Origin: a virus
Lineage: Duplodnaviria > Heunggongvirae > Uroviricota > Caudoviricetes
DNA length: 34,781 nucleotides
Virus record (IMG/VR): IMGVR_UViG_2713896902_000006
Direction: 5' to 3' (one strand)
The notes under the pieces were generated by a model, which saw nothing but the letters and a program-made list of their open reading frames with translations, made no database searches and was not told where the DNA came from. This document shows positions 1-34,278 of the stretch, piece after piece (positions within the stretch are counted from its first letter, which is position 1; each line of letters opens with the position of its first letter). Position numbers and translations under genes: made by a program.

Positions 1-160
1 TGAGTTTGAAATGATTACTCCTGCGCCTACAGGAATCTATGCCACCTGAAACAGAGAGTAAAAAAAGGGTGCAGGAAGCCAACCATCACAATTCAATACG
101 CGGGGTTTTACCCCCGCGTGATGGCTACTTCTTCGATTCGTAAGCGAGAACTGCCTTAAA

Positions 161-235
<75 letters not shown>

Positions 236-236
236 T

Positions 237-293
<57 letters not shown>

Positions 294-322
294 CAGAACT
301 CGCGCCAGCCTGATTGCAGATA

Positions 323-712
323 TTACTCTTTTTTCTCCGTATCTGCATCGGGTTCATCAGCAAATAGCTTGCCCTGCATCCGATCCAGTTCTTCTTTTCT
401 TACCCGCTTAACCACGCTGTAGACCCACTGAAGCGAAACACCAAATTTGCGGGCCAGTTCGTGGTGGTTGCGTCCGTTAAACTCCCTGAAGATTTCCCGG
501 TCGCGCTGACTGACCTTCCATACCATGCCCATCGGGAAATAAACGTTTTGCCCGCCCCAGACCTGCATCATTCGGTTCGCGACGGCCTGACCAATCTGGT
601 CGGCAATTGCGGGCTCAATATCAATAATCTCGCGAACGGTCTCAGAGGTATGCTGTGCCAGTTCCACCAGGAGTTCCGGCCCTTTACTTCGAAACTGATT
701 CAGGTCGCTCAT
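323..712 (-). CDS. mor: Mor/C-family transcriptional activator (middle or late operon regulator)
   Basis: 129 aa, same length class as Mu Mor; C-terminal HTH-like segment (ARKFGVSLQWVYSVVKRVRK); last gene of the early operon directly after the GemA-like gene; GGGAG RBS 6 nt upstream of ATG. Confidence 0.7.
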   Translation of the reverse strand: MSDLNQFRSKGPELLVELAQHTSETVREIIDIEPAIADQIGQAVANRMMQVWGGQNVYFPMGMVWKVSQRDREIFREFNGRNHHELARKFGVSLQWVYSVVKRVRKEELDRMQGKLFADEPDADTEKKE

Positions 713-1136
713 GTTTTACTCCCGTAGCTCTGCGCTGCCACTTCTTCAGTTTCTCAATAACACTGCTTGCCTGTTCAGTACTGAGCCAGCGCAGGGCGCT
801 GATGCCCGTTTCCCGCTTGATCCACCGCGCTAATGCATTTTCTGAACGGTCACGAACAATGCCGGCAGCAGCCATTTCAAGCCATAGAGCACGGATTTTC
901 CTGGACTGCGGATGGTTATCCTGCTGTAAACCGGAGCTGGCTTTTCCGGCAAGCTTAACGCGAAAGCCTTTCCTTTTCATGGATTCCAGCACGCAGTTTA
1001 GTTGTGTGGTATCCATTCCTTTGGTTGAGGCTTTACCGGTCAGCCCCTCTAACATCTGGCGGTAGGTGTCTTCATCCATACCCAGTTCATTACGGGCAAT
1101 ATGAATGAGCTGGATAAGACGTTGTTTAGTCATCAT
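684..1136 (-). CDS. gemA: GemA-like protein (Mu gp16 family)
   Basis: Position immediately upstream of the Mor-like gene as in Mu; start placed at internal ATG 1136 (MMTKQRL...) because it has an AGGAG RBS, whereas the 1175 ATG has none; family call from recollection of Mu GemA. Confidence 0.55.
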   Translation of the reverse strand: MMTKQRLIQLIHIARNELGMDEDTYRQMLEGLTGKASTKGMDTTQLNCVLESMKRKGFRVKLAGKASSGLQQDNHPQSRKIRALWLEMAAAGIVRDRSENALARWIKRETGISALRWLSTEQASSVIEKLKKWQRRATGVKHERPESVSK

Positions 1137-1341
1137 CGTTGCTCCTTTTACCTGCGCCACCGATATAATCGACATATAAAGGAAGCGCCACAGGCCAGCA
1201 CAGGAACATCACCGACCAGCTAATCCAGTAGCCGGCACCACTGTAACGTGAATAAAACCCTGAACGGCGGTGCAGTTCAGCAGTACACCAACCGACAAAA
1301 CAATACCAGAACAGGGCACTTACAACAGATTCAGCAGTCAT
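1126..1341 (-). CDS. small hydrophobic protein (two predicted TM segments), hypothetical
   Basis: Internal ATG of ORF 1126..1497 preceded by a G-run; hydrophobic stretches FWYCFVGWC and WISWSVMFLCWPVALPLYV; compact coupling with neighbours. Confidence 0.35.
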   Translation of the reverse strand: MTAESVVSALFWYCFVGWCTAELHRRSGFYSRYSGAGYWISWSVMFLCWPVALPLYVDYIGGAGKRSNDDD

Positions 1342-1561
1342 TCTGAATATCCCCCCAACTGATATGAATATTACGGGCAGCAATGACAGGGTCGTTATTC
1401 CACCATGCACCTGACATGTATTTTTCAACCTGTTCGCGTCCGGCAATAACACCAATTGTGATCCCCGGCCTGACGTTCTTAAAAAAGGCGCGGGCAAAAA
1501 GGTATCTGGCAGATATTCGGCAGGCTTTTAATTTCCGGCTGTTACCTGATAGCGTAATCAT
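1331..1561 (-). CDS. hypothetical early protein
   Basis: 76-aa ORF whose start overlaps the stop of the upstream gene, consistent with translational coupling; no recognisable motif. Confidence 0.4.
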   Translation of the reverse strand: MITLSGNSRKLKACRISARYLFARAFFKNVRPGITIGVIAGREQVEKYMSGAWWNNDPVIAARNIHISWGDIQNDC

Positions 1562-2241
1562 CTGACCTCCAGTTTCTGTTGTTCCTGCCCACTGACCGGG
1601 CGGTGCAGTCTGACGTTCTGCCCTTCAAGAAACCCCGCATAGCGCGAGGCGTCGCCATTGCGGCTTCTTCCCGGTTTACGCGCCCTGGTGGTTTGCGTTT
1701 GCGGGTATTTATGCTCCAGCCACTGCTGCATCAATTCACGTTCGTCATCGGTCAGGGCGAAGGACTGTATTTCACTGATAACGGCCAGCACCCAGCCTTC
1801 AGCAAACTGGTCACCACGGCTGGTACGGGTGGCAGTTTTTATTCTTTTGTTCTGTGCGCTGATATACTGCTGACGCGCCTTTTTCAGCTGGCGGGCCAGC
1901 ACTTTCCAGGTGTACGCAGCCAGTGCGGCCCGTTCCCGGTTGCCGTAGAACCCCACACCCGGATATGTGCCGGGGTGAATGATGGAGTTAACACCAAATG
2001 CCTCGCGGATGATGTTCATCAGGCCCAGCATGTAGCGCGGTGGACGGAGGCTGCCTGTCGGCCAGTAGTGACTGATGGTTTCATCAATATCACTCATGGC
2101 GATGTCGGAATGTGTGATGCCGTGAACATCCATCAGTTTACGGGCACGGCGCAGTGCCAGAGCGGCCTCGTGCGGGTTGCCGGATGCGGCCAGCGCCAGC
2201 AACTTTTTCAGTTTCTCAATGTGTTTATCTTGGTCTGTCAT
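1558..2241 (-). CDS. DUF2786-like phage early protein
   Basis: N-terminal KLKKLLALAASGNPHEAALALRRARKLM motif that I recall as characteristic of DUF2786; ATGA start/stop overlap with upstream gene; GGAGA RBS. Confidence 0.55.
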   Translation of the reverse strand: MTDQDKHIEKLKKLLALAASGNPHEAALALRRARKLMDVHGITHSDIAMSDIDETISHYWPTGSLRPPRYMLGLMNIIREAFGVNSIIHPGTYPGVGFYGNRERAALAAYTWKVLARQLKKARQQYISAQNKRIKTATRTSRGDQFAEGWVLAVISEIQSFALTDDERELMQQWLEHKYPQTQTTRARKPGRSRNGDASRYAGFLEGQNVRLHRPVSGQEQQKLEVR

Positions 2242-2543
2242 TGTTCAGTATCTCCGGTGTACATGACGCCCAGCCGTGCGGCAAGGCGTTCCAGTTTTTT
2301 CTGTTTGTGGAAGTCAATCAGCCGGTCCATCCCCTGAAGGCGCAGCTGCTCTGTCATGATTTCCACATCTGCCAGCTCTGCCGCGAGGTCACTTTCGCTG
2401 CCCTGTCCGTTCAGGTTGCGGGCAGCACAGGCTGCCAGTTCAGCGGCCTCTTCTGTCAGTTTCAGGGCCTGTGCGTCCGGCCCGAAACGCTGCAGGGCCA
2501 GACGGTAGAGGGCGGTGCGGGTGAGTATGGTGTTCCGTGTCAT
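2238..2543 (-). CDS. MazG-like nucleotide pyrophosphohydrolase-fold protein (small, all-alpha)
   Basis: 101 aa with paired acidic helical motifs (TEEAAELAA... and ELADVEIMTEQL) typical of the MazG/HisE-like family; coupled to flanking genes. Confidence 0.5.
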   Translation of the reverse strand: MTRNTILTRTALYRLALQRFGPDAQALKLTEEAAELAACAARNLNGQGSESDLAAELADVEIMTEQLRLQGMDRLIDFHKQKKLERLAARLGVMYTGDTEQ

Positions 2544-2552
2544 GCTGCGACC

Positions 2553-2825
2553 TCAGTGTTTCCGGCTGACGGTGATGTGCAGACCACCTTCTGCAGTGGT
2601 TTCCATCCGGTACGGCACCTCGTGCTCTGCCGTGTGGGTGAGTGTGTTCACCAGTACCTGCAGGGCAGCCGCCTTTCCGTTGGTCGCCACAATGGCCTGA
2701 GCGGCCATGCTGATTAGCGCCGTAAGGACGTGCTTCACATCGGTGAGGTCGCGGCATTCACACTCGTTGACATAGTGTTCAACAAGGGTTCGGGTGCGCT
2801 GTCGTGCTTCCTGTGGGGTAATCAT
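2553..2825 (-). CDS. hypothetical early protein
   Basis: 90-aa ORF with strong GGGAGGA RBS 6 nt upstream; ATGA overlap with upstream gene. Confidence 0.5.
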   Translation of the reverse strand: MITPQEARQRTRTLVEHYVNECECRDLTDVKHVLTALISMAAQAIVATNGKAAALQVLVNTLTHTAEHEVPYRMETTAEGGLHITVSRKH

Positions 2826-3016
2826 TGCGCTTCCTCCCTGTCAGGGCGGGAGAATTCCATGACGGGCACGTCTGCCGAAAAATGCTGACTGCAGTACGGA
2901 CAGACCAGGGTGACGCGTACTGCAGGTACGTGGTACTTACCGGACATCACGGCGATGGCGCTGTGAAAACGCAGGGCTGTTATATCCCTCTCGCACTGAA
3001 TACATTTAAATATCAT
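2822..3016 (-). CDS. small zinc-ribbon-like protein (CxxC ... CxxC)
   Basis: 64 aa with CIQC near the N-terminus and CPYC later, a paired CxxC pattern; GAGGAG RBS before ATG at 3016. Confidence 0.5.
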   Translation of the reverse strand: MIFKCIQCERDITALRFHSAIAVMSGKYHVPAVRVTLVCPYCSQHFSADVPVMEFSRPDREEAQ

Positions 3017-3113
3017 GATTTAATTCTCCTCTGTTTCCGGCGTGCAGAAGCCCACGGCGCTGACGCCGGAATAAAAAAGAAAATGTTTTTATTAAATAAT
3101 TAACGTGGTGTGT

Positions 3114-3644
3114 TTACTGCACATCCTGCTCAAAAGGAATTATTGAAAAATCCTCAATATCGCTTTTTATGGTAATACCGGGAATATTTTTCACAGCCTC
3201 TTTTTCATTCAGAATGGCATCTTTATTTATTTCCTCCTTTACACGAATAAAGCGCTCAAGCCCCAGACGTCTCAGTAGTTCAATAACATTATCCGCCCCG
3301 CGAATGCTGACTGACGGTGGACGGTTTCGCCACTGCACCTCGCCAGTGGTGAGGTTAGCGAACTTCACCTTCCCGTTGCCGGTCAGTTCATCACGGTGTG
3401 CCTCACACCATGTCTGGATACCGGACTGCAGTTCGGCCATGCGTTTTTTCAGGCTCTCGGTGAGCGGGGCATAACGTGCGGTGATGTCGCCAATGGCGTC
3501 ATTCATTTCTGTTTCAGTCCTGACCAGTTCACGTTGTGCATCACCGAGCAGTCTGATTCCCTCAATGACCTCTTCGCGTGTCCCCGGTACCCAGAGTGCT
3601 GCTGCGGCCTTGATACGTTTTGCCCCTTTTGTACTTTTTGCCAT
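3114..3644 (-). CDS. gam: host-nuclease inhibitor Gam (Mu Gam family)
   Basis: 176 aa, matching the length and charged coiled-coil character of Mu Gam; location in the semi-essential region downstream of the B-like ATPase. Confidence 0.75.
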   Translation of the reverse strand: MAKSTKGAKRIKAAAALWVPGTREEVIEGIRLLGDAQRELVRTETEMNDAIGDITARYAPLTESLKKRMAELQSGIQTWCEAHRDELTGNGKVKFANLTTGEVQWRNRPPSVSIRGADNVIELLRRLGLERFIRVKEEINKDAILNEKEAVKNIPGITIKSDIEDFSIIPFEQDVQ

Positions 3645-3671
3645 ATTTTATGATTTCTCCAGTTATGCTGA

Positions 3672-3941
3672 TTACCACAAAGATTCCGGCCACACGACGC
3701 GACAGCCGTGCAGTTCGAAAACGCCCTGACGGAAATATCCCCTGTTGTCATGTCCGGTATACAGATAACAGGCCTTTCCCTGCTCAAGCATGCGCATGCA
3801 ATGCGCACTCCGGGAAACGCGAATGACAGGTTTGTTACCCCTGATGGTGATGCTTTGTACATCCGTGTTCGTGGCCTTAAGCGCCATAATGGCTGACTGC
3901 ACTTTGCTGATTTGCTGGTTGATACCTGTGGTGGATTTCAT
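3672..3941 (-). CDS. hypothetical early protein (occupies the kil position of Mu)
   Basis: 89-aa ORF starting 3 nt after the stop of the B-like gene; call is positional only. Confidence 0.4.
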   Translation of the reverse strand: MKSTTGINQQISKVQSAIMALKATNTDVQSITIRGNKPVIRVSRSAHCMRMLEQGKACYLYTGHDNRGYFRQGVFELHGCRVVWPESLW

Positions 3942-8911: not shown

Positions 8912-9919
8912 ATGTCTGAGCAGACCATTGAAGTTAAACACGTTGTAGTTCACATTTTAGACAAACAACAAAATGGAGACGCTTCTGAGAGATTGAGTCC
9001 TGAAGAAGGTCTAGTTACTGAAGCCTCTCAGCGCCTTATAAACGATATTTGTGCAAAATATGCAGGACGCACAGGTAAAGGTTATGGCTATTTTGAAGGC
9101 GATACGGATAACTATCCTATGGAACGAATGGCTGGGGACTTTCTCGAAGGTGTTGATGATTTCTACCAAAGTTCCTGCCGAATGATGCATCACCTGACGG
9201 AACGTTCTCAGCGAGAAAACATGGCTACTGGTGGTTATGTTCTTTTTGCAAATATCGTGATAGGACACAATGAACACCTGTTGATAGCTATTGTAAGCGC
9301 TACCATTGGGTCCACTGTCACAGATGATTTTAACATCCAAGATAGTACCTACCTTGATATTGCTAAGCTGCGTATGGCTGGGCGCATTGACTTAACCGCG
9401 TGGGAAAGTGGCGCAGAGCGCTATATCAGTTTTCTTAAGGGGCAAGGTAATGTTTCAAACTATTTTAAACAGTTCCTCGGCTGTAATGATGTCTTAATCG
9501 CCAAACGAGAGTCTGAAAAGTTACGTGACGTTTTAAAAGCATTTGCGGCAGAGAAAGGACTTGACGGCGCTGAAAAAGATGCATTTCTTAAGAGTGCGTT
9601 TGAACACTTACATGCACTAAGTAAGGCTGGTGAACCACTTAGTCTTGAAACCCTTGTTAATGCCATTTGGCCCCAGGCTCCCGAGGAGTTATCTGGTAAA
9701 CTTGCTGCTGAAGAGTTGGAGTTATCGGATGGCTTCGTTCCTGATGGTCGAGTCATTCGGGCTCTGGTATCTTTTAAAGGCAAGTCTAAATATTGGGAAC
9801 TTAAGTTTGACCGGGAAGGGAAAACTGAAGGCTATATTGATTATGATCCGGAAACAAATATTATCACCCTACGTAATGTACCTGAAGAATTTAGGGAAAT
9901 GTGGATGACTGAGGTTTAA
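8912..9919 (+). CDS. YejK/NdpA-family nucleoid-associated protein paralogue
   Basis: 335 aa, the same length as E. coli YejK; shared blocks recalled from YejK: GG(Y/F)VLF, YLDI, (G/A)RIDLT.WE, RY(I/L).FLKG, and a C-terminal block ending DP.T..(I/L)T(L/I). AAGGTGG RBS. Confidence 0.7.
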   Translation: MSEQTIEVKHVVVHILDKQQNGDASERLSPEEGLVTEASQRLINDICAKYAGRTGKGYGYFEGDTDNYPMERMAGDFLEGVDDFYQSSCRMMHHLTERSQRENMATGGYVLFANIVIGHNEHLLIAIVSATIGSTVTDDFNIQDSTYLDIAKLRMAGRIDLTAWESGAERYISFLKGQGNVSNYFKQFLGCNDVLIAKRESEKLRDVLKAFAAEKGLDGAEKDAFLKSAFEHLHALSKAGEPLSLETLVNAIWPQAPEELSGKLAAEELELSDGFVPDGRVIRALVSFKGKSKYWELKFDREGKTEGYIDYDPETNIITLRNVPEEFREMWMTEV

Positions 9920-9921
9920 TC

Positions 9922-11127
9922 GTGGCGATTTCATTTGAGATGCTGACAGCTCTGTATCGTCGTATGGAATTCCAAGAGGGGTTTCGTGTCGGTTCGCTGT
10001 TGCTCTTAGATCAGTCCGATTGTGATCTGGTTGATACTTTGCTTGATGATCCTCGTGAATATGGTCTTTCTATTGATACAGGCACTATCGCTCCAGGTAA
10101 CACGATCATCCTACGTGTGACGTCACCACGGAGTGGACTGGGACTTGTGTTTTCCACCCATGAAAAATTGCTAAATGCTCCAAAGCATCAGTGCCTTGAG
10201 CCAGCTAATTACTTCATCCTAGAAACAAAATTTCGTAATGATGATGAAGATATCCCCGTTTTCATCAGCAACTACCGGAAGATTCTCGAGTTCGTTAACC
10301 TGCTAAAAGAGGCCGCGGCCTACTTTGATAACTCAACTTGTCAGTTAGTTTTTCTGAAAAAAGAAGTTATCAAGCTATTACCGCACTTCGCTGCAGAAAA
10401 TGTACAAAATTTGCAAAGGGAGTATCTTGATAACCTTATAGCTTGTTTCAATGATGATACCCATAAGGATCAGAAGCTAGATATTCTGATTGAAAGTATC
10501 CAAGCAGTTAGTGATGGAATTGATTCACCTCTAGTATTCGCTTATTTACTGGACAATATTCAGCGTCTGCATGAAAAGTTTCTGAAAGGGTATCGTATCT
10601 ACTCTTCTGGATTCTCTTATGACAAAGTAATGGATCAACTGCGTGCTGCAAAAGTCGAAGAAATGGGTAAAATCCACAAAGCGTTTTCAGATATCCAGAA
10701 CCATATACTTGGCATTCCTGTTGCCTCTGTTATCGTAGCTACCCAATTCAAAGTGGCTACGAAATGGTCAGGCCAAGGGATAACAAACACAATAATTCTT
10801 CTGGGATGCATTTTTGCTGCAACGTTAATCTGGCTGGCACTTTCGAACCAGATGCAATCTATAAAGGCCTTAGGCGAAGAAATTGAATACAAAGAAAAAC
10901 AGATTAATAAGGAATATTCCTTCATTAAAGATGACGTGGCTGGTGTATTTAGCAGTATTTCTGCGCGACTAGACACGCAGAAACGTACGTTCTGGATTAT
11001 ACGTGGTGTTCTAGTTATGGGAATTATTACCGCTATCACTGTTTATTTTTGGTACACAAAACCAGCCCTTGACTTCATGCAGTACTTGATTCACTGCATG
11101 AAGTCTTACTATTCGGTCAAAAGTTGA
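9922..11127 (+). CDS. hypothetical protein with two C-terminal transmembrane helices (partner of the NdpA-like gene)
   Basis: GTG start 2 nt after the upstream stop with GAGG RBS; 401 aa; hydrophobic segments ITNTIILLGCIFAATLIWLALS and FWIIRGVLVMGIITAITVYFWY near the C-terminus; very AT-rich. Confidence 0.6.
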   Translation: MAISFEMLTALYRRMEFQEGFRVGSLLLLDQSDCDLVDTLLDDPREYGLSIDTGTIAPGNTIILRVTSPRSGLGLVFSTHEKLLNAPKHQCLEPANYFILETKFRNDDEDIPVFISNYRKILEFVNLLKEAAAYFDNSTCQLVFLKKEVIKLLPHFAAENVQNLQREYLDNLIACFNDDTHKDQKLDILIESIQAVSDGIDSPLVFAYLLDNIQRLHEKFLKGYRIYSSGFSYDKVMDQLRAAKVEEMGKIHKAFSDIQNHILGIPVASVIVATQFKVATKWSGQGITNTIILLGCIFAATLIWLALSNQMQSIKALGEEIEYKEKQINKEYSFIKDDVAGVFSSISARLDTQKRTFWIIRGVLVMGIITAITVYFWYTKPALDFMQYLIHCMKSYYSVKS

Positions 11128-11887
11128 GGATAATGAGTTCCTTCTTGCGACTGGATTTGCCAGTGATCTTGAGGTTGTAGCTGATATCAACCGACTGAAT
11201 ATTTAGACCGTTGAATGCCTGCCGCATTTCCGGGATATCGTTCACCGATATAATCATATTCCCTTTGATCCTGCGTGCTAAATCTGCCATATGATCATAA
11301 TTTTCTAGTCCGAACTCCACACCATAACCTTCCGTTCCCCAGTATGGAGGGTCACAGTAGAACAACGTATGCGGGCGATCATATCGTTCTATGCACTGTT
11401 GCCAGTCCATGTGTTCTATGACCGTTCTGGAAAGCCGCAGGTGTGCCGCTGACAGTTCATCTTCAATACGCAGCAGGTTGAAGCGTGGCGGGGATATGGT
11501 GGAGGTACCAAAGCTGTGCTCCGCCACCTTGCCTCCAAACGCCTGCTTCTGAAGGTAGTAGAACCGTGCTGCACGCTGGATATCCGTCAGTGTTTCTTCC
11601 GGGGTGATCTGCAGCCATTTGTAGATCTGCCGGCTGACCAGCGCCCATTTGAACTGGCGTACAAATTCTTCCAGATGATGTTTTACCACCCGATACAGGT
11701 TCACCAGCTCACCGTTGATATCATTAATGACTTCGATCTTGCCGGGTACCTTAAGAAAATAGAGCGCTGCTGCCCCACAAAACGGCTCCACATAACATTC
11801 ATGCGCCGGAAACAGCGGCAGGATGTGTTTTGCAAGGCGGCGTTTGCCACCAATCCATGGAACGATGGGTAATGTCTGCATTTTCAT
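11117..11887 (-). CDS. dam: DNA N6-adenine methyltransferase, Dam-like (orphan)
   Basis: DPPYW catalytic motif and EPFCGAAA SAM-binding-like motif; 256 aa; no adjacent restriction endonuclease; 3' end overlaps the convergent cassette gene by 11 bp. Confidence 0.8.
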   Translation of the reverse strand: MKMQTLPIVPWIGGKRRLAKHILPLFPAHECYVEPFCGAAALYFLKVPGKIEVINDINGELVNLYRVVKHHLEEFVRQFKWALVSRQIYKWLQITPEETLTDIQRAARFYYLQKQAFGGKVAEHSFGTSTISPPRFNLLRIEDELSAAHLRLSRTVIEHMDWQQCIERYDRPHTLFYCDPPYWGTEGYGVEFGLENYDHMADLARRIKGNMIISVNDIPEMRQAFNGLNIQSVDISYNLKITGKSSRKKELIILNF

Positions 11888-12030: not shown

Positions 12031-12134
12031 AAAGCCATCATGCAGTGCACGTTTACATCTTCACTATTAACGCTGTTTAAAATCCGTATCCCGCCACATT
12101 TGTGATGCTGTCTCCACCAAACGAGGAGACACAC

Positions 12135-12485
12135 ATGAAAAACCTGAAAAAATTCATTCCCCCTGTTAAAAAACCTCGCCTCAGCGGCTGGCTGCTGACC
12201 TCAGTGCTGTTGCTGGGCATCATCGCTCTGGTCTCGCCACAGCAGTTGCCTGTTGTGATCTACAAGCTGGCACTCATCACGCTGGCAGCAGTGCTGGGTT
12301 ACTGGCTTGACCGTTCGCTCTTCCCCAAAGCCCGTCCCGGTCAGTACCTGAAACATGACGACAGACTGATGGCTGAAGGGCGTTTCCCTGTGCAGACCGG
12401 CCTTCACCTTGTATTTTCTGCTGCGTTAATCCGCCGTGCACTGATTGTTGCAGCAGTCTGTCTGGCCGTAGCGATGGGGCTTTAA
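12135..12485 (+). CDS. putative holin (multi-TM small membrane protein)
   Basis: 116 aa from ATG 12135 with GAGGAG RBS; several hydrophobic segments; immediately precedes the endolysin with a TAATG overlap. Confidence 0.55.
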   Translation: MKNLKKFIPPVKKPRLSGWLLTSVLLLGIIALVSPQQLPVVIYKLALITLAAVLGYWLDRSLFPKARPGQYLKHDDRLMAEGRFPVQTGLHLVFSAALIRRALIVAAVCLAVAMGL

Positions 12486-19474: not shown

Positions 19475-19600
19475 AACCGCCTCCGGTTCACCGCATTGCT
19501 TTCCCTGTCCTTCTCCCCTGATGTTTTCTAAAGCAGATTAAAATCGCCGGGCCTGCATTTCTCACAAACTGTCTCCGACAACATAACGCGGGACAGCAAA

Positions 19601-22033: not shown

Positions 22034-22480
22034 ATGTACTGCACCCTGGAGGATTTGCTTGCGCAGATGCCGGAACGAACGCTGATCGAGCTCACCAGTG
22101 AAGAGATGGACTTCGACTCGCCTGCAACAGTGAATACCCGTGTGGTGGACAGCTGTATCCGCTATGCCGACGAGCTGATTGATGCCCATCTGCGCGGACG
22201 CTATATCCTGCCACTGGCAGAGATACCGACTGTTCTGCGGGACATTGCCATCACGCTGGTCCGTTACCGGCTCTACGCCCGCCGCCCGGAAGGTGACCTC
22301 CAGGATACGGTGAAGGATGACCACAAAGAAGCGCTGCGGCAACTCAGGGAGTTACGTGATAACAGGCTCACGCTGGGGCTGCCGTCCACTCAGAAAGATG
22401 TGCCTGAGCCTGGCGAGTTTCGTGTACGCAGCCGCCCGGCCACTTTCGGCGGTCGTGACGGTTTACTGGAGAAATACTGA
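22034..22480 (+). CDS. head-tail connector-region protein (Mu gp36-like)
   Basis: 148 aa from ATG 22034 just after the upstream stop; positional assignment. Confidence 0.45.
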   Translation: MYCTLEDLLAQMPERTLIELTSEEMDFDSPATVNTRVVDSCIRYADELIDAHLRGRYILPLAEIPTVLRDIAITLVRYRLYARRPEGDLQDTVKDDHKEALRQLRELRDNRLTLGLPSTQKDVPEPGEFRVRSRPATFGGRDGLLEKY

Positions 22481-25423: not shown

Positions 25424-25450
25424 AGGGGCTCCGGCCCCTTCTTCTTAATC
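25424..25450 (+). terminator. rho-independent terminator-like hairpin (AGGGGC-tccg-GCCCCT) followed by T-rich tract
   Basis: 6-bp GC-rich stem with tetraloop at 25424..25439, then TCTTCTTAATC; sits between the tube and chaperone genes. Confidence 0.4.
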
Positions 25451-25514
25451 CCCTTTAATATCCGTCACGTCCACCGCCAGACATACTGCTCTGAATTTAC
25501 AAAGGAGTATGATC

Positions 25515-29374: not shown

Positions 29375-29586
29375 TGTTTCTTGAACATATTACCCGTGAC
29401 GGAGAGCGCTGGGATTCGCTGGCATGGCAGTACTACGGTGACCCGCTGGGCTATCCCCGGATTATTGCAGCCAATCCGCACGTGGCCATTACGCCGGTGC
29501 TGCCCTCCGGGTTGTTGTTACTGATCCCGGTTATTGAGGCTGAAGATGCCCGTACAGAAGAGGATATTGCCCCATGGCTGAGATAA
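29371..29586 (+). CDS. tail protein X (P2 gpX-like, LysM-like)
   Basis: 71 aa; recalled similarity to P2 gpX (YYG, AANP and LP.G blocks in the same order). Confidence 0.65.
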   Translation: MMFLEHITRDGERWDSLAWQYYGDPLGYPRIIAANPHVAITPVLPSGLLLLIPVIEAEDARTEEDIAPWLR

Positions 29587-30728
29587 ACAGTACTGCGCAA
29601 GCCACATCAGCGTTAACCGGCGTCAGCGATGTGCTGACGCCGGTATTCACTCTGTGGTATCTGCAGAAAAACATCACCTCTGATATCGCGCCTTATGTCA
29701 CCCGTGTGGTCTGGAGCGATAACATCAAAAATGAGTCCGATACCATTGAGGTGGAGCTGGACGACACCGATGGCCGCTGGCTGGATAAGTGGTATCCGGG
29801 CAAGGGTGACACGCTGACGCTGAAAATGGGTTATCAGGGCGAGAAACTGCTGTCCTGCGGTACATTCTCAATAGACGAGATCGAAGTGAGTTCGCCCGCG
29901 TCCGTTGTCGCTATCCGTGGGGTGGCTACCTCGGTTAACAGTGCTCTGCGGACTAAATCCAGCCGTGGTTTTGAGAACACCACGCTGGCAGCTGTTGCGG
30001 GGCGGATTGCCAGAAAGCACCGGCTGAAACTGGTGGGCAGCATTGAGTCCATCAGAATCGACCGGGTGACCCAGTATGCTGAAACCGACGTGGGTTTTCT
30101 GCGCCGGCTGGCCAGCGAGTATGGTTATGCAGTGAAAGTGGTCAGTGACCAGCTGATTTTTTCTCATCTGGCCACACTTCGCAGTCAGGAGCCGGTCAGG
30201 CAGTTAAAACCGCAGGATGTGGCCTGCTTTTCCCTGCGTGACACCATCAACCGGGTCTATAAATCTGCAAAGGTAAAACACCAGAAAAGCAGCAGTAAAA
30301 AACTGATCGTCTACGAAGCTGATGGTGGTACCCGTGAAAGCGACAAAAAGCTCAAAGGCGGTAAGGTTACCAGCGCTGACTCACTTAAAGTTAACAGCCG
30401 CGTCAGCGACCCGGACAGTGCCCGGATTAAAGCGGATTCAGCACTGGCCAAACATAACGAATACCAGCAGAACGGCTCCCTGACGCTGACGGGAACGCCT
30501 CAACTGACAGCAGGCAACAAAATTGAACTGGTGGGCTTTGGACAGTTATCCGGTCCATGGCTGATAATCACTGCCCGCCATGCGTTTGAGCGTAACAGCG
30601 GCTACACCACAGAGCTGGAAGTGGCACGGGGGCCAGTCACAAGAGGGAAAAAACAAAAAACTCAGAAACTCACGGTTTATCACCCGGATGGCAGTACATC
30701 GACGGTGATTAAGGAGAAGAAAAAATGA
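29574..30728 (+). CDS. tail protein D (P2 gpD-like)
   Basis: 384 aa, matching the gpD size class; position U-X-D. Confidence 0.7.
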   Translation: MAEINSTAQATSALTGVSDVLTPVFTLWYLQKNITSDIAPYVTRVVWSDNIKNESDTIEVELDDTDGRWLDKWYPGKGDTLTLKMGYQGEKLLSCGTFSIDEIEVSSPASVVAIRGVATSVNSALRTKSSRGFENTTLAAVAGRIARKHRLKLVGSIESIRIDRVTQYAETDVGFLRRLASEYGYAVKVVSDQLIFSHLATLRSQEPVRQLKPQDVACFSLRDTINRVYKSAKVKHQKSSSKKLIVYEADGGTRESDKKLKGGKVTSADSLKVNSRVSDPDSARIKADSALAKHNEYQQNGSLTLTGTPQLTAGNKIELVGFGQLSGPWLIITARHAFERNSGYTTELEVARGPVTRGKKQKTQKLTVYHPDGSTSTVIKEKKK

Positions 30729-31237
30729 CTGGTGTCACCCGTCAGGTCGGTACGGTCAGTGCCGTTGATGCCGACAGGGTTCAGGCCCGCGTTCGTCTGC
30801 CTGAATGCGATAATCTGCGCACAAACTGGCTTAACGTGCTACAGCGCAATACCCAGGATAACAAGGATTACTGGCTCCCTGACGTGGGGGAGCAGGTTGA
30901 GGTGCTGCTCGATGCCAACGGCGAGGATGGTGTTATTCTGGGCGCGGTGTACTCAGACGTCGATAAACCGCCGTTCAGTGATAAAAACGTCCGGGGCACG
31001 AAGTACGCTGATGGCGCGGAGTTCAGTTATGACCGCGCGACCCATACGCTGACGGTCAAAGGAGGTATCGAGCATGTGGTGATCGAGGTTGCAGTGGGTA
31101 TTAGTCTGAAAGGGAAAACCATTGATTTGACAGCTGACACTATCATGGTGAACGGCAATCTTGAAATCAAAGGGAGTACCCATGCGACTGGTAACATATT
31201 TGCAGATGGACAGAATTCCAATCATCACTCTCACTAA
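30725..31237 (+). CDS. baseplate assembly protein V (spike, P2 gpV-like)
   Basis: 170 aa; conserved block WLPDVGEQVEVL comparable to the P2 gpV region; ATGA overlap with the D-like gene. Confidence 0.7.
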   Translation: MTGVTRQVGTVSAVDADRVQARVRLPECDNLRTNWLNVLQRNTQDNKDYWLPDVGEQVEVLLDANGEDGVILGAVYSDVDKPPFSDKNVRGTKYADGAEFSYDRATHTLTVKGGIEHVVIEVAVGISLKGKTIDLTADTIMVNGNLEIKGSTHATGNIFADGQNSNHHSH

Positions 31238-31318
31238 TTTTTCAAGTATGTGACTCCATTTCCTCTCCCGCGGATATGATAGAATTTTTTAATTAACACT
31301 AATTTGGCGGGGACTTAA

Positions 31319-32194
31319 ATGCGGTTATCAAGATCCTTATGTAAAGTAGTTGGCGATGTCATTGCTAACTCAGGCTCTCATGCAGCTTTAGATACGTTAT
31401 TTCTTACTTCGGGAGCACCAGGAAACCCTCCGGCAGGATCTCATAGTACAAAATGGAAAGACTGGTTATTTCTTGCAGGGCAAGATCCAGATACAGATAG
31501 TCTGGCAGTTCTGGGCGGAGTAATTGAGGAGTTTATGGATTTACCTCCAAAAGAAGGTACTCCCGAATATGCAGAATGGAAGGAAAAACGAGACAGAATT
31601 GAAGCTGTGTTACAAGAGAATGGACTTAGATATTATCGTTTTGGTCGAGTGTTGCCTGAAGGCCACATCCCGTCACACAATATGGATTACCCAGAGACCA
31701 TAATTACTTATCAACAGCCAGTAATGCCAGAAAAAGTTGAGAACTTACTGGAAAGGCTGGTCAAAGGCTTACAGCGAGCAATGCATCCACTTACTCATAG
31801 GCGAAAAGGAAGCCAGTCATTATCTTTTAGCAATGAATATGACGTGCAAGACCTTCTCCATGCATTGCTCAGACCATGGGTTCAGGACATCCGCCCAGAA
31901 GAGTTTACTCCAAGTTACGCTGGTTCAAGTACTCGAATGGATTTTTTGTTACCTGCGCATAAATTAGTACTGGAAACCAAAATTGTTCGTGATCGTTCTC
32001 ATGCAAAGAAAATCGGCGATGAACTTATTATCGATATAGAGCATTATCGTCAGCACTCTGATTGCAAAAATCTCTGGTGTGTCATCTACGATCCGAACCA
32101 GTTTATTACTAATTCTGAGGGGCTGAAATCTGATCTTGAGGGGAAGAGAGTTTCTAAAGACGGAGAACTTATCGTCAAGGTTTTCGTAATTTAA
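31319..32194 (+). CDS. AT-rich moron ORF; protein with C-terminal PD-(D/E)xK-like nuclease motif pattern, function unknown
   Basis: 291 aa; inserted between V and W, which are adjacent in P2; flanked by 81-bp and 71-bp AT-rich non-coding spacers; C-terminal E (NEYDVQDLL), D (RMDFLL), ExK (VLETKIV) pattern. Confidence 0.6.
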   Translation: MRLSRSLCKVVGDVIANSGSHAALDTLFLTSGAPGNPPAGSHSTKWKDWLFLAGQDPDTDSLAVLGGVIEEFMDLPPKEGTPEYAEWKEKRDRIEAVLQENGLRYYRFGRVLPEGHIPSHNMDYPETIITYQQPVMPEKVENLLERLVKGLQRAMHPLTHRRKGSQSLSFSNEYDVQDLLHALLRPWVQDIRPEEFTPSYAGSSTRMDFLLPAHKLVLETKIVRDRSHAKKIGDELIIDIEHYRQHSDCKNLWCVIYDPNQFITNSEGLKSDLEGKRVSKDGELIVKVFVI

Positions 32195-32265
32195 CAAACG
32201 TATCAATAACTCCTTTTTAAATCCCTTTAATATCGTTCTTTTCTTACTGGGGCAATACTGCCCCC

Positions 32266-32613
32266 ATGAAAACGACCTCAGTATTCTGGCAACCGGCTCT
32301 GCAGGCTCCCGGCGAAATCGTCCGGGGGCTGGATGATATCCAGCAGTCCATCCAGATCATCCTGCGGACTCCCCGCGGCAGCGACCCGCATCGCCCAGAG
32401 TTCGGCAGCAATCTGCACCTTTATATCGACTGGCCTGTCGACCGGGCCATTCCGCATGTGGTTCGCGAATCCGTCGATGCCATCAGGCGCTGGGAACCCC
32501 GCTGCCAGCTTATGTCGGTTAAACCCGCCGTCGACGGCGAACATCTTACGCTCCGGGTGAGCTGGAAAGGCTCAGACGGACAACCCCGTACTCAGGAACT
32601 GCTATGGCGCTGA
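32266..32613 (+). CDS. baseplate assembly protein W (P2 gpW-like)
   Basis: 115 aa; ILRTPRGS and WEPR blocks as in gpW-type proteins; followed by an overlapping J-like gene. Confidence 0.75.
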   Translation: MKTTSVFWQPALQAPGEIVRGLDDIQQSIQIILRTPRGSDPHRPEFGSNLHLYIDWPVDRAIPHVVRESVDAIRRWEPRCQLMSVKPAVDGEHLTLRVSWKGSDGQPRTQELLWR

Positions 32614-33707
32614 CAGAACCCGATTTTATTGAACTCGATGCCGATAAAATCACGGCAGAAATGATTGCGAAATATGAAGCGGATACCGGCAAAACGTTGT
32701 ACCCGGCACAGGCAGAACGTCTGCTGATAGATCTGTGGGCCTATCGCGAAATGCTGGTCAGGGTGGCGGTACAGGAGGCGGCGAAGCTGAATCTGGTCGC
32801 CTTTTCCCGGGAGCCGATGATTGATTACCTCGGAGAACTGGTTGGTGTATACCGCCTTCCCGCGCAGCCTGCCACCACCACACTTCAGTTCTCTGTGGAT
32901 GAGGCACTGGCCATTGATGTGCTGATCCCGGCAGGCACCCGCGTCAGCGCTTCCGACAGCGTGATTTTTGCCACCGATACAGATGTAGTGCTGAAGGCCG
33001 GTTTGCAACTGGTCAATGCCCCTGCCACCTGTACTGAGCCGGGTACCTCTGGCAACGGCTGGCAACCGGCTCAGGTCAGTCAGCTGCTTGATGAGATTGA
33101 TAACGTTGACCTGCTGGTGACCAATCTGACGGCCAGCACTGGCGGTTCAGAGCAGGAAGACAATGACCGACTCCGGGAGCGTATCAGGCTGGCCCCGGAG
33201 TCATTCACCAATGCCGGAAGCCGTGGTGCATACCGTTTTCATGCCATGGGGGCGCATCCCAGTATTGTCGACGTCGCTGTTCTTTCTCCCGTTCCCGGTA
33301 CTGTCGAGCTGTATCCACTGCTCAGCACTGGTCTGCCAGACAGCAGTATCCTCACTCTGGTAGAGAGTTTCTGTTCTGACGAAAAAGTCAGACCACTCAC
33401 TGATACCGTGCGGGCTAAAACACCTGTTCAGGTGGATTACACCATTGAAGCCAGGATTACGATCTATCGTGATCAGGATGCAATGTCGGTAAAGGACAAC
33501 GCTAACAGCGCCATACAGAACTGGGTGGCATCACGTGCCGCCACGCTGGGACGCGATATTGTCCCCAGCCAGATTATCAGTGCATTGTCCGTTTCCGGGG
33601 TGTACCAGGTTGAACTGGTGACACCGGCACTGCGGGTGGTTGCAGAAAACGAATGGGCAAACTGTACGGCAATCACTCTTAACGTGACAGGGGTGTCCGA
33701 TGGCTGA
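32604..33707 (+). CDS. baseplate assembly protein J (P2 gpJ-like)
   Basis: 367 aa; position W-J-I; start overlaps the gpW stop. Confidence 0.75.
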   Translation: MALTEPDFIELDADKITAEMIAKYEADTGKTLYPAQAERLLIDLWAYREMLVRVAVQEAAKLNLVAFSREPMIDYLGELVGVYRLPAQPATTTLQFSVDEALAIDVLIPAGTRVSASDSVIFATDTDVVLKAGLQLVNAPATCTEPGTSGNGWQPAQVSQLLDEIDNVDLLVTNLTASTGGSEQEDNDRLRERIRLAPESFTNAGSRGAYRFHAMGAHPSIVDVAVLSPVPGTVELYPLLSTGLPDSSILTLVESFCSDEKVRPLTDTVRAKTPVQVDYTIEARITIYRDQDAMSVKDNANSAIQNWVASRAATLGRDIVPSQIISALSVSGVYQVELVTPALRVVAENEWANCTAITLNVTGVSDG

Positions 33708-34278
33708 GGCGCTACGACTACCGCCACCGCTTGAGGGTGATATCAGTCTCAAAACGCTGGGAAGACTGGCCGAACGGCTGGATAACATCGACCTGAGCGT
33801 ACTGATGGTCTGTCTCGTCGATATCGTCGACAGTTCCGCGCTGCCATGGCTGGGCGAGCAGTTCTCGTTGTTCGGCGATGGCTGGGAACTGGCGGAATCG
33901 GACGATGTACGCCGCATGCTTATCAAATCCGCTATCGAGCTACACCGCTATAAAGGAACGCCGTGGTCAATCCGGGAAATTATCCGCCGTTTTGGCTTTG
34001 GCGAAGTAGAGCTGATAGAAGGTACGGGGCAGATCGGCTACGACGGTAAACACAGTTACAACGGACTTTTCGTCCATGGCGATGCACAAGCCTGGGCAGT
34101 CTATCGGGTCATCCTTCAACAGCCCATCACTAATGATCAGGCAGCGCTGTTACGTCAGACGCTCGCTGCCTTTGCTCCGGCTCGCTGCCATCTGGCAAGC
34201 CTGGAATATCAGTCTGTCGCCATTCGATACAACAGTACTACCCGTTATGACGGTAGTTACAACCACGGGAGCAGTTAA
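33700..34278 (+). CDS. tail protein I (P2 gpI-like baseplate protein)
   Basis: 192 aa; position between the J-like gene and the tail fibre gene; overlaps the J stop. Confidence 0.65.
   Translation: MAEALRLPPPLEGDISLKTLGRLAERLDNIDLSVLMVCLVDIVDSSALPWLGEQFSLFGDGWELAESDDVRRMLIKSAIELHRYKGTPWSIREIIRRFGFGEVELIEGTGQIGYDGKHSYNGLFVHGDAQAWAVYRVILQQPITNDQAALLRQTLAAFAPARCHLASLEYQSVAIRYNSTTRYDGSYNHGSS

Follow-up and report, generated by a model that had tools for sequence, protein, structure and literature searches.

The GC-rich hairpin GGGGCA-ATAC-TGCCCC, which lies immediately upstream of the gpW ATG, is native and widely conserved; it very probably forms the core of a phage late promoter and is not an insertion scar or a repeat. 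The promoter, designated P_W, is unremarkable as a regulatory element apart from its uncommon layout. It was found in a 34,781-nt stretch of DNA (the window) from a Caudoviricetes virus, IMG/VR record IMGVR_UViG_2713896902_000006, at the point where a moron separates the baseplate genes V and W. By analogy with the late promoters of phage Mu, P_W is very probably a Mor/C-type late promoter of a BcepMu-like (Mu-type transposable) prophage. The fuller reading, in which the same element is both a late promoter and the start of a leaderless gpW mRNA, is put forward with more reserve, as the probable one on balance. The features discussed below are collected in Table 1.

Table 1. Features of the window on which the interpretation of P_W is based.
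Feature	Position	Strand	Basis or remark
Mor/C-family transcription activator	323..712	-	Pfam Mor PF08765, E = 1.3e-43
Predicted late promoter (box, 19 nt, GATGCT)	12067..12109	+	upstream of the holin/lysis genes; leader of about 19 nt, SD present
Predicted late promoter (box, 19 nt, CAAACT)	19528..19570	+	about 24-nt leader
Predicted late promoter (box, 19 nt, CATACT)	25445..25487	+	before tail assembly chaperone gene; leader SD AAGGAG
gpV baseplate spike	30725..31237	+	Pfam PF04717
Moron cassette	31238..32211	+	low G+C: about 0.40 vs 0.55
Moron ORF, 291 aa, DpnII/MboI-like PD-(D/E)XK nuclease domain	31319-32194	+	Pfam PF18742, 3e-47
Native V-W spacer kept 3' of moron = predicted late promoter P_W (-54 to -1)	32212..32265	+	alignment
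Predicted Mor/C-type activator box TTTAAA-TCCC-TTTAAT-ATC	32216..32234	+	pattern and conservation
Box-to-hexamer spacer, 19 nt	32235..32253	+	fixed length, variable sequence in all lineages
Dyad/hairpin GGGGCA-ATAC-TGCCCC	32249..32264	+	fold and lineage arm complementarity
Predicted -10 hexamer AATACT (-12 to -7)	32254..32259	+	xAxxxT in relatives
GC-rich discriminator GCCCCC	32260..32265	+	first five bases finish hairpin 3' arm
gpW, GPW_gp25 baseplate wedge protein	32266..32613	+	Pfam PF04965

A first-pass annotation of the window had placed the hairpin at the downstream boundary of the moron. This position is correct, as all 54 nt of the sequence between the moron and gpW align ungapped with the native V-W spacer of insert-free relatives, a result equalled by 0/1000 shuffles. 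Because of this alignment, the insert can be delimited to the 31238-32211 interval; insertion took place precisely between the stop codon of V and position -54 and did not disrupt the promoter. In insert-free relatives, the V-W spacer measures 53-56 nt, has an identical layout and lies directly 3' of the gpV stop codon. Aligning these insert-free V-W junctions, the check that the annotation had proposed, showed the motif and the hairpin to be present there, and the whole spacer, including box and hairpin, was found in hundreds of insert-free relatives. The related suggestion that the native upstream signals of gpW were preserved at insertion is thereby supported. The insert itself is present in 12 of the 636 E. 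coli genomes that bear the V/W region, and no terminator was found 3' of the moron. In relatives, the V-W slot just upstream of the promoter carries varied cargo. Some enteric spacers also contain a native inverted repeat (AACGCC-N9-GGCGTT) that is unconserved and has been lost in the window.

The sequence preceding the hairpin (32211-32248) had been described as the second copy of a repeated motif flanking the moron. The sequence exists, although the repeat is at chance level. Local alignment of the V-moron spacer (31238-31318) with the moron-W spacer (32195-32265) gave a score that 609/1000 shuffles equalled or exceeded, and the best 38-mer match inside 31201-31330 reached 19/38 by sliding identity, as did 519/1000 shuffles. 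By both methods the flanks of the moron were without significant similarity that would indicate direct repeats or a target-site duplication. True copies of the core of this motif lie elsewhere, at the late-operon starts at 12067, 19528 and 25445. The idea that motif and hairpin mark the junction is thus unsupported, since the element occurs in 185 loci with or without cargo.

To define the element, we compared 83 distinct upstream sequences from these 185 related loci in Enterobacterales, Pasteurella, Burkholderia, Ralstonia and Pseudomonas. The same order of an AT-rich box, 19 nt, a hexamer of the form xAxxxT, 6-7 nt and the ATG was seen in 82/83. In the window, the two half-sites of the box (32216-32221 and 32226-32231) are centred at -42.5 relative to A32266, the predicted +1, and the box forms the core of the supposed second motif copy. 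It is conserved from Pasteurella to Burkholderia and Pseudomonas. An 18-mer pattern of the box had 12 matches at ≤3 mismatches against 1.3 expected, and a strict regular expression matched nothing but late-operon starts, four of them in the window and another four in PhiKM. A further box-like match at 3944 was rejected, as it is a minus-strand coding junction without a downstream hexamer. The 19-nt spacing recurs at four late promoters each of the window, a Pasteurella phage and BcepMu, as well as in 82 of the 83 W variants; its last five nucleotides, GGGGC, are the first five bases of the hairpin 5' arm. The predicted -10 hexamer consists of the four loop bases together with one base from each arm, namely the final base of the 5' arm and the initial base of the 3' arm. 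Its A at position 2 is conserved in 80/82 variants and its T at position 6 in 79/82, and hexamer and ATG are 6 nt apart in 69 variants, another 13 having 7 nt. A sigma-70 scan found no -35/-10 pair at P_W.

The Mor/C-family gene at 323-712, whose PhiKM homologue is annotated as 'positive regulator of late transcription protein C', is the presumed activator of all four late promoters. We propose that its product would bind the AT-rich dyad at 32216-32234, about 42.5 bp 5' of the gpW ATG, and bring sigma-70 RNA polymerase to the hexamer AATACT (32254-32259), a -35 element being absent. Box, spacing and hexamer match at the four corresponding sites of Pasteurella phage AFS-2018a and BcepMu, and the hexamers of AFS-2018a are canonical (TATACT, TATTCT, TAAACT and TAATAT). 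The gene that follows the 19528..19570 promoter occupies the position of the head protease/scaffold gene and has no Pfam match. The three window promoters other than P_W carry no dyad around their -10 hexamers. In the literature that we searched, neither late promoters nor a leaderless gpW had been described for BcepMu-like phages.

From P_W, transcription would begin 7 nt past the hexamer, at the A of the gpW ATG (32266), and would yield a leaderless gpW mRNA. We consider this start likely, with +1 placed by the -10 geometry alone. The gpW start is ATG in all variants and reads ATGA in 81/82; all listed variants have a pyrimidine at -1 and A at +1 except one (L106), which has A at -1. Only at W does the ATG follow the hexamer by 6-7 nt, whereas the other three promoters precede leaders of 19-35 nt with an SD. 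No SD was found before gpW, the calculated anti-SD duplex (-4.7 kcal/mol) coming from a distant GGGG only, and we propose that the SD is missing because the gpW mRNA is leaderless. A misplaced start codon was considered and rejected: no in-frame ATG, GTG or TTG lies between the TAA at 32218 and the gpW start, codons 1-26 offer no in-frame substitute, and residues M1, Q9 and A11 belong to a conserved N-terminus. Leaderless mRNAs, of which lambda cI and the P2 V operon are examples, need an AUG start and not GUG or UUG. Their translation in E. coli is generally inefficient, which, if we assume the same for gpW, would suit a low-copy baseplate protein.

The hairpin itself had been described as a 6-bp GC stem-loop beside the gpW ATG, and this is borne out. 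Its 5' arm GGGGCA (32249-32254), loop ATAC (32255-32258) and 3' arm TGCCCC (32259-32264) are separated from the ATG by the single base C32265. The hairpin is the dominant local fold in a 28-nt segment (-11.1 kcal/mol, z = -2.55), with 3/300 dinucleotide shuffles equally stable, and is weaker in a 111-nt context (z = -1.47; 17/200 shuffles equally stable). Judged from the window sequence alone it is therefore mildly unusual, and the strong evidence is its conservation. The 16-mer is almost invariant among 25 enteric spacer variants, and analogous dyads were found in other genera. With respect to the promoter, the 5' arm lies just 5' of the -10 hexamer, the loop falls inside it and the 3' arm makes up the discriminator. 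No Rfam 15 covariance model matched the 31000-32800 region at E <= 1.

Across lineages the arms differ and yet remain complementary (GGGGCA/TGCCCC, GCGGC/GCCGC, GCCCTG/CAGGGC, CGGC/GCCG and GCGCCCA/TGGGCGC). Arms pair better with their own flank than across lineages, and 0/5000 permutations paired as well, a figure that overstates independence because the sequences are related. In the enteric clade, G.U-compatible variants were seen for each of the six core pairs, with a single break; of the 7 substitution events in the enteric stem, 6 yield G.U, and the outer pair switches between G-C and A-U. The hairpin thus appears, from this pattern of substitutions, to have been selected as a plus-strand structure, although the excess of C-to-T changes could stem from strand-biased mutation instead of selection for G.U pairs. 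Any tie between hairpin and cargo was rejected, since lineages with cargo have, on average, the weaker stems (mean -5.3 vs -9.4 kcal/mol, a comparison confounded by clade). Of 31 representative lineages, about 9 show little or no hairpin (dG above -2.5 kcal/mol) while retaining the promoter and the leaderless layout, which means that the core function can do without it.

What might a conserved stem in this position do? It ends 1 nt before the AUG and spans -17 to -2 of the ribosome footprint, the AUG itself lying outside. Both arms are upstream of the predicted +1, and the predicted P_W transcript would lack the hairpin because it starts at the ATG. The arms would pair as RNA only in transcripts arriving from upstream, either from the tail operon ending in V or from the moron. 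On such read-through RNA, a stable stem adjoining an SD-less AUG would keep ribosomes off gpW, so that gpW expression would be coupled to activator-dependent initiation, much as in T4 gene e and I-TevI. This read-through gate, built on that analogy, is the weakest step of our best explanation, and we advance it tentatively, as a possibility somewhat short of an even chance. The earlier proposal that the hairpin modulates initiation of gpW translation accordingly survives in part: it is plausible for read-through RNA from V or the moron, while the element is primarily a promoter.

Related geometries occur at other late promoters, where a 5' arm in the promoter core can pair with a 3' arm over the SD. 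Such stems were found at the lysis promoter of the window (GTCTCC/GGAGAC, z = -3.2) and at the lysis (z = -7.7) and tail (z = -5.0) promoters of the Pasteurella phage. With respect to the predicted starts, the stems of the window lysis and head promoters and of the Pasteurella-phage lysis and tail promoters have a T4 gene e-like geometry. One could extend this to a general insulation of BcepMu-like late operons, in which the core of each Mor-dependent late promoter encodes an arm that silences the first late gene on read-through RNA; this generalization we regard as rather doubtful. Were it true, the leaderless start would be an addition at P_W that restricts gpW synthesis to activator-initiated RNA, and untranslated read-through RNA would be exposed to Rho polarity. 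The site 5' of P_W would then be a safe place for constitutively expressed cargo, which would account for the varied V-W cargo, several examples of which are plausibly defensive or serve host-surface modification.

Apart from the read-through gate, the dyad might act on DNA. A GC dyad around the -10 could work on the promoter itself, RNA pairing being irrelevant, as a melting barrier that silences the promoter without activator, as a supercoiling- or replication-sensitive cruciform, or as a site for a dimeric protein. The dyad is indeed always centred on the -10 and not fixed to the ATG, its pair sums being -17, -19 or -21 according to clade, and perfect dyads surround the hexamers of the BcepMu holin and protease promoters (ATGCCGTC-CAAGAT-GACGGCAT and CGCCC-GATGAT-GGGCG). 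As these two late promoters are leadered, their GC dyads hint at a DNA-level role outside the RNA-gate model. Late transcription of Mu is, moreover, coupled to replication via the clamp (PMC12867686). However, the complete difference in arm sequence from one lineage to the next speaks against a conserved protein site, and the strand-asymmetric, G.T-compatible substitutions favour a single-stranded plus-strand structure over recognition of the duplex. The absence of a dyad from the -10 regions of the remaining three window promoters also weighs against this explanation, which we judge unlikely.

Quite unlikely, too, is a conventional leader hairpin. In that case, the gpW mRNA would start 5' of the hairpin, using TAATAT inside the box as its -10 element, and a stem in the 5'-UTR would tune initiation, for instance by hiding the SD-like GGGG. 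The stem is stable and conserved, its plus-strand substitutions are G.U-compatible, the box-internal TAATAT and TAAAAT resemble good -10 hexamers, and the GGGG may pair weakly with the anti-SD (-4.7 kcal/mol). However, the box hexamer is TAAAAG, without the key -7 T, in about 30 Pseudomonas-type variants, and its T is present in only 51/82 variants, whereas the A2 and T6 of the downstream hexamer are kept in about 80/82. The GGGG and the AUG are 13 nt apart, and the corresponding arms in Pasteurella (GCCCTG) and Burkholderia (GCGGC) are not SD-like. A leader hairpin would also leave unexplained why 12 promoters from three phages share a second conserved element, always spaced by 19 nt, and why the fixed 6-7-nt distance to the ATG is confined to W. 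Given the TAAAAG variants and the second conserved hexamer at fixed spacing, we rejected the box-internal TAATAT as a -10 element in favour of AATACT.

A third proposal, that the stem is a terminator, an attenuator or a 3'-end stabiliser of the upstream V transcript, is very improbable. A GC stem-loop does stand at the end of an operon segment, and the mean stem is stronger beside V than after cargo, a difference confounded by clade. Nevertheless, no T run follows the hairpin on either strand, an intrinsic terminator scan of 31100-32400 returned 0 sites, and what lies beyond the hairpin is the A-rich 5' end of the gpW reading frame. With the U tract missing and the scan negative, a Rho-independent terminator was rejected. 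Hardly credible is a split ribosome-binding site of the T4 gene 25 and 38 type, in which the hairpin would bring a distant SD near the AUG and enhance gpW translation: gpW is a gp25 homologue and T4 gene 25 has such an SD-stem-AUG arrangement (PMC3014915), yet the bases preceding the stem are rich in C and T and include no SD in any of the enteric variants (CCCGCACA, CCCTTCC, TTCTTACT), Burkholderia and Pasteurella. Equally remote is the notion that motif and hairpin were made or duplicated by moron insertion, for although the element adjoins the right end of a low-G+C insert and the spacer at 32212-32248 is more diverged from relatives (11/37 mismatches) than the hairpin, it is refuted by the insert-free relatives carrying the whole spacer, box and hairpin, the moron flanks are dissimilar, and the 19-nt spacer varies in every lineage.

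We conclude that an apparent junction signal of a moron becomes a testable promoter map, in which box, spacing and -10 are defined for four late promoters, and that this map applies to a large family of Mu-like prophages from Enterobacterales, Pasteurellaceae, Burkholderia, Ralstonia and Pseudomonas. Reading the element as P_W explains why annotation pipelines miss a ribosome-binding site at gpW, and the predicted leaderless gpW mRNA would suit a comparative study of leaderless translation late in infection. V-W cargo sits precisely outside the minimal promoter, which helps in recognising cargo hotspots and in engineering prophages. Current concepts are unchanged by these results; known mechanisms are extended to a new family.

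The closest parallel is phage Mu. Its late promoters have a -10 and no -35, and C binds a 16-bp imperfect dyad centred at -43.5, with the bases just 3' of the dyad being critical (PMC2582627). Like Mu, with Pm, Plys, PI, PP and Pmom, the window has a Mor-family gene and four promoters heading late operons, and these promoters also have a -10 and no -35. Their imperfect dyad, about 16 bp long, is centred some 43 bp 5' of the predicted start, where it covers part of the -35 region and is followed directly by conserved bases. The centre of the window dyad is at -42.5 relative to the predicted +1, unlike the -43.5 of Mu. The likeness of the box TTTAAA-N4-TTTAAT to Mu is one of layout, the sequences of the Mu C/Mor sites being outside the comparison. 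Also unlike Mu, one window promoter lies inside the baseplate block, between V and W, and is predicted to be leaderless.

In this last respect P_W resembles PV of phage P2, as an activator-dependent late promoter, by prediction, before homologous baseplate and tail-fibre genes and without an SD. A conserved leaderless baseplate mRNA, as predicted here, would thus be a counterpart of the P2 V operon that is controlled by another family of activators. The P2 operon V-W-J-I-H-G is leaderless at V, whereas that of the window phage would be leaderless at W. For P2 this is based on the RefSeq record, which annotates the start of V-operon transcription at the first base of the V CDS; no paper stating that the V mRNA is leaderless was found in the literature searched. 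The activator of P2, Ogr, is of the zinc-finger type with a different binding site, and the presumed activator of the window phage is of the Mor/C family. PV has no GC dyad around its -10, unlike P_W.

Phage T4 offers two further precedents. In gene e, soc, 49 and I-TevI, early read-through RNA folds a stem over the initiation region, while transcripts from the late promoters lack the 5' arm and are translated (PMC3014915). At P_W, unlike the gene e type, both arms lie upstream of the predicted +1, the stem adjoins the AUG and does not cover it, and there is no SD to hide. The polymerase also differs, since T4 uses gp55 and sigma-70 with an activator is proposed for P_W. As in T4 gene 25, a hairpin stands immediately 5' of the start of a gp25/gpW-family gene. 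Gene 25, however, needs an SD 5' of the stem, which P_W does not have, and its stem enhances translation, whereas the stem of P_W is predicted to be absent from the mRNA that is translated.

Aligning the V-W junctions of insert-free relatives, a check suggested in the first-pass annotation, recovered the same spacer before gpW: all 54 nt of 32212-32265 align ungapped with the relatives' V-W spacer (0/1000 shuffles). Because of this match, and because the insert (the moron) occurs in only 12 of the 636 complete E. coli genomes that have the V/W region, we place it at 31238-32211, with the V stop codon directly on one side and the intact native spacer directly on the other. The annotation had set the downstream boundary of the moron here and supposed that the native gpW upstream signals were preserved, and both points are borne out. 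The repeat it saw flanking the moron is at chance level: the flanks are no more alike than shuffled sequence (609/1000 shuffles score as well), and nowhere in the V-moron spacer does the 38-mer match better than 19/38, a level that 519/1000 shuffles reach. Nor do motif and hairpin mark a junction, since insert-free relatives carry the same element.

The prophage is a BcepMu-like transposable phage with P2-type baseplate genes at the window's right end. Its close relative PhiKM, classified Bcepmuvirus, has genes for a transposase, GemA and a 'positive regulator of late transcription protein C'; in the window, too, there are genes for GemA and an rve transposase, together with one of the Mor family. 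The early/regulatory region (8912-11127) holds two plus-strand ORFs, one for a nucleoid-associated protein of 37 kDa (NA37, 1e-80) and one for a protein of 401 aa without a Pfam match. Neither is clearly matched in the annotation of PhiKM, and they may represent additional cargo.

Features of the window and of related loci
Feature	Position	Sequence or remark
D	29574-30728	
V	30725-31237	
Moron ORF	31319-32194	291 aa
W	32266-32613	
J	32604-33707	
I	33700-34278	
Hairpin 5' arm	32249-32254	GGGGCA
Hairpin loop	32255-32258	ATAC
Hairpin 3' arm	32259-32264	TGCCCC
Predicted late promoter, before holin and lysis genes	12067	hexamer GATGCT
Predicted late promoter, before gene at head protease/scaffold position	19528	hexamer CAAACT
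Predicted late promoter, before tail assembly chaperone	25445	hexamer CATACT
Predicted late promoter, before W	32217	hexamer AATACT
Lysis promoter stem	12110-12130	GTCTCC (discriminator, anti-SD mimic) pairs with GGAGAC (SD); z = -3.2
Head promoter stem	19569-19596	z = -2.4
Pasteurella phage (L114) lysis promoter stem	9647-9690	12 bp; z = -7.7
Pasteurella phage (L114) tail promoter stem	22288-22335	11 bp; z = -5.0
Cargo slot, window	31238-32211	other loci: L022, L024, L103, L136, L139, L144, L145, L147, L148, L163, L168, L189

The moron ORF lies in a low-G+C block (~0.40 vs 0.55 in the flanks). Its product carries a C-terminal DpnII/MboI-like PD-(D/E)XK nuclease domain (residues 143-286; Pfam PF18742, 3e-47) and an uncharacterised N-terminal half, and in PADLOC it matches only the C-terminal part of 'Aga_Helical-REase' models. 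No methyltransferase gene adjoins its ORF; that for a Dam-like D12 methyltransferase is distant (11117-11887, minus strand). The moron protein may be a restriction-like defence nuclease that acts alone. By eye, TGATAGAAT at 31277-31285 resembles an extended -10 promoter for the moron; a -35/-10 scan did not call it. There is no terminator after the moron, so its transcripts should run into gpW and the predicted promoter before it (P_W).

The V-W gap measures 53-56 nt in ~125 loci; ~40 others have a gap of 140-1548 nt or a V gene >1.1 kb distant. With short or long gap, the segment from the putative P_W activator box to the gpW ATG is intact in every locus. Across the BcepMu-like family, the stretch from the V stop codon to the box is a slot that repeatedly takes up cargo. 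The same nuclease is found in the window and in L103; other cargo comprises DUF4145 proteins encoded on the opposite strand, an acyltransferase (Acyl_transf_3), a PAAR protein, a CV_2116-like protein, several unknown ORFs and, in Apirhabdus, a small reverse ORF accompanied by a terminator. Since cargo differs by lineage and the box-to-ATG segment is always intact, independent insertions end just upstream of about -54. One decaying prophage, L022 (Apirhabdus apintestini, 1-3700), has frameshifts that break D, W and J, with box, hexamer and hairpin upstream of W all intact.

Judged by sequence, the element before gpW behaves as a predicted Mor/C-type late promoter. A V-W spacer of 35-63 nt is present in BcepMu, phiE255, a Pasteurella phage, two Pseudomonas phages, a Ralstonia phage and a Salmonella prophage remnant; the remaining baseplate gene junctions all overlap. 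From 185 loci gathered from genomes and IMG/VR we obtained 83 distinct 60-nt upstream sequences, 82 of which share one architecture: an AT-rich dyad box, TTTAAA-N4-(T/A)TTAA(A/T)A(T/G)C; a variable stretch of exactly 19 nt; a hexamer in which position 2 is A (80/82) and position 6 is T (79/82); a gap, 6 nt long in 69 variants and 7 nt in 13; and an ATG start, ATGA in 81/82. Placing the -10 element at TAATAT within the box was rejected, as ~30 variants read TAAAAG there, without the critical final T, and the second conserved hexamer would be left unexplained. The 5' part of the window's spacer is unusually diverged from its relatives (11/37 mismatches). Many insert-free enteric spacers (L001 1013-1067 and others) hold a further inverted repeat, AACGCC-TTTAATATC-GGCGTT, whose loop contains the second half-site of the box; this repeat varies among spacer variants and is destroyed in the window copy (32220-32245).

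The box recurs at other operons. Its 18-mer pattern has 12 matches in the window at <=3 mismatches, against 1.3 expected, and a stricter pattern leaves only four sites, likewise four in PhiKM, with a box-to-hexamer spacing of 19 nt at all four in the window. The same four sites are found in Pasteurella phage AFS-2018a, with canonical hexamers (TATACT, TATTCT, TAAACT, TAATAT), and in BcepMu (CAAGAT, GATGAT, GACAAT, CAACAT). Several start codons at these sites look misplaced. In 12102-12137, the listed holin ORF begins at GTG 12102, within the predicted promoter, and the true start is likely ATG 12135, 7 nt past the SD GAGGAG; the tail chaperone probably starts at ATG 25515, not 25509; and the start of BcepMu gene 32 (L113, 18820-18860) is probably mis-annotated, because its ATG overlaps the predicted -10 hexamer GATGAT. 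A terminator-like hairpin, GGGGC-TCCG-GCCCC followed by TTCTTCTT (25425-25444), lies directly 5' of the tail-chaperone promoter box; P_W is not preceded by one like it.

We infer that the gpW mRNA is leaderless, with the A of the ATG as predicted start. A distance of 6-7 nt is normal between a -10 element and the start of transcription, and among the four late promoters the ATG stands so close to the hexamer at W only; the other three have leaders of 19-35 nt with good SDs. No lineage among those compared has a Shine-Dalgarno sequence before gpW, where the window's only G-rich stretch is the hairpin 5' arm, 13 nt from the AUG. Every variant starts with ATG, the N-terminus is conserved and no alternative in-frame start was found. 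All listed variants but one (L106, A at -1) have a pyrimidine at -1 and A at +1. The homologous P2 operon offers a precedent that adds to this reading: the P2 RefSeq record places the start of V-operon transcription at the first base of the V CDS, so the predicted leaderless output of P_W parallels P2 PV.

The hairpin GGGGCA-ATAC-TGCCCC is present beside the gpW ATG as first described, separated from it by a single C. Locally it dominates the folding, at -11.1 kcal/mol with z = -2.55 for a frame of 28 nt and z = -1.47 for one of 111 nt. In promoter coordinates its 5' arm spans -17 to -12 and its 3' arm -7 to -2, the discriminator except for the arm's first base; the -10 hexamer (-12 to -7) consists of the loop and its two closing bases. 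Arm sequences vary by lineage with complementarity kept: GGGGCA/TGCCCC in enteric phages, GCGGC/GCCGC and GCGGCA/TGCCGC in Burkholderia, GCCCTG/CAGGGC in Pasteurella, CGGC/GCCG in Ralstonia and GCGCCCA/TGGGCGC in one Pseudomonas lineage. Own-flank complementarity exceeded cross-lineage pairing in 5000/5000 permutations, a figure that overstates independence as the representatives are related. The enteric clade has variants at every core pair; of 7 substitution events, 6 are compatible with G.U pairing in the plus strand, and the outer pair is G-C in 7 sequences and A-U in 5. This pattern favours a plus-strand single-stranded structure, most simply RNA. Because ~9 of 31 representative lineages have a weak stem or none, the stem is an accessory feature outside the core promoter. 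It is unconnected with cargo; mean stem energy is -5.3 kcal/mol with cargo vs -9.4 without, a comparison confounded by clade.

As the P_W transcript would start downstream of both arms, they would be absent from the promoter's own RNA and present only in read-through from V or the moron. On such RNA, the likeliest role of a stem abutting the SD-less AUG, though we hold it somewhat doubtful, would be to keep ribosomes off gpW. Alternatively, the stem could act at the DNA level, as a GC clamp around the -10 hexamer or through supercoiling sensitivity; in support of this, perfect dyads also flank the -10 hexamers of two leadered BcepMu promoters, whereas the enteric substitutions favour RNA. At the BcepMu holin promoter (11515-11545) the flanking dyad is a perfect 8 bp, ATGCCGTC/GACGGCAT. 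A T4 gene-25-type split RBS was rejected for want of an SD upstream of the stem, a terminator because no U tract follows and a scan of 31100-32400 found no terminator-like sites, and a known RNA family because Rfam gave no match.

Other late promoters of these phages have stems in which the 3' arm covers the SD and the 5' arm belongs to the promoter core, which is not transcribed, so that at the window's lysis and head promoters and the Pasteurella lysis and tail promoters only promoter-started transcripts would have a free SD. PhiKM retains the lysis-promoter stem with a different loop. U runs follow the Pasteurella stems, which resemble terminators for read-through RNA.

In the searchable literature, which does not include the original BcepMu paper, we found no account of such promoters in BcepMu-like phages. 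Their closest likeness is to Mu, whose late promoters carry a recognisable -10 hexamer and lack a -35, whose C protein binds a 16-bp imperfect dyad centred at -43.5, with bases just downstream also mattering, and whose Plys was functional as a -52 to +8 fragment (PMC2582627). The predicted promoters resemble these in the presence of a Mor/C-family activator gene, in having a -10 but no -35 and in recurring at late-operon heads. They also carry a dyad box, which at P_W would be centred at -42.5 when the A of the gpW ATG is taken as the predicted +1. For the stem the parallel is T4 (genes e, soc, 49 and I-TevI), in which an inhibitory stem forms on RNA initiated upstream, and RNA from the late promoter, without the 5' half of that stem, is translated (PMC3014915). 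P_W would be a leaderless variant of this gene e-type gating.
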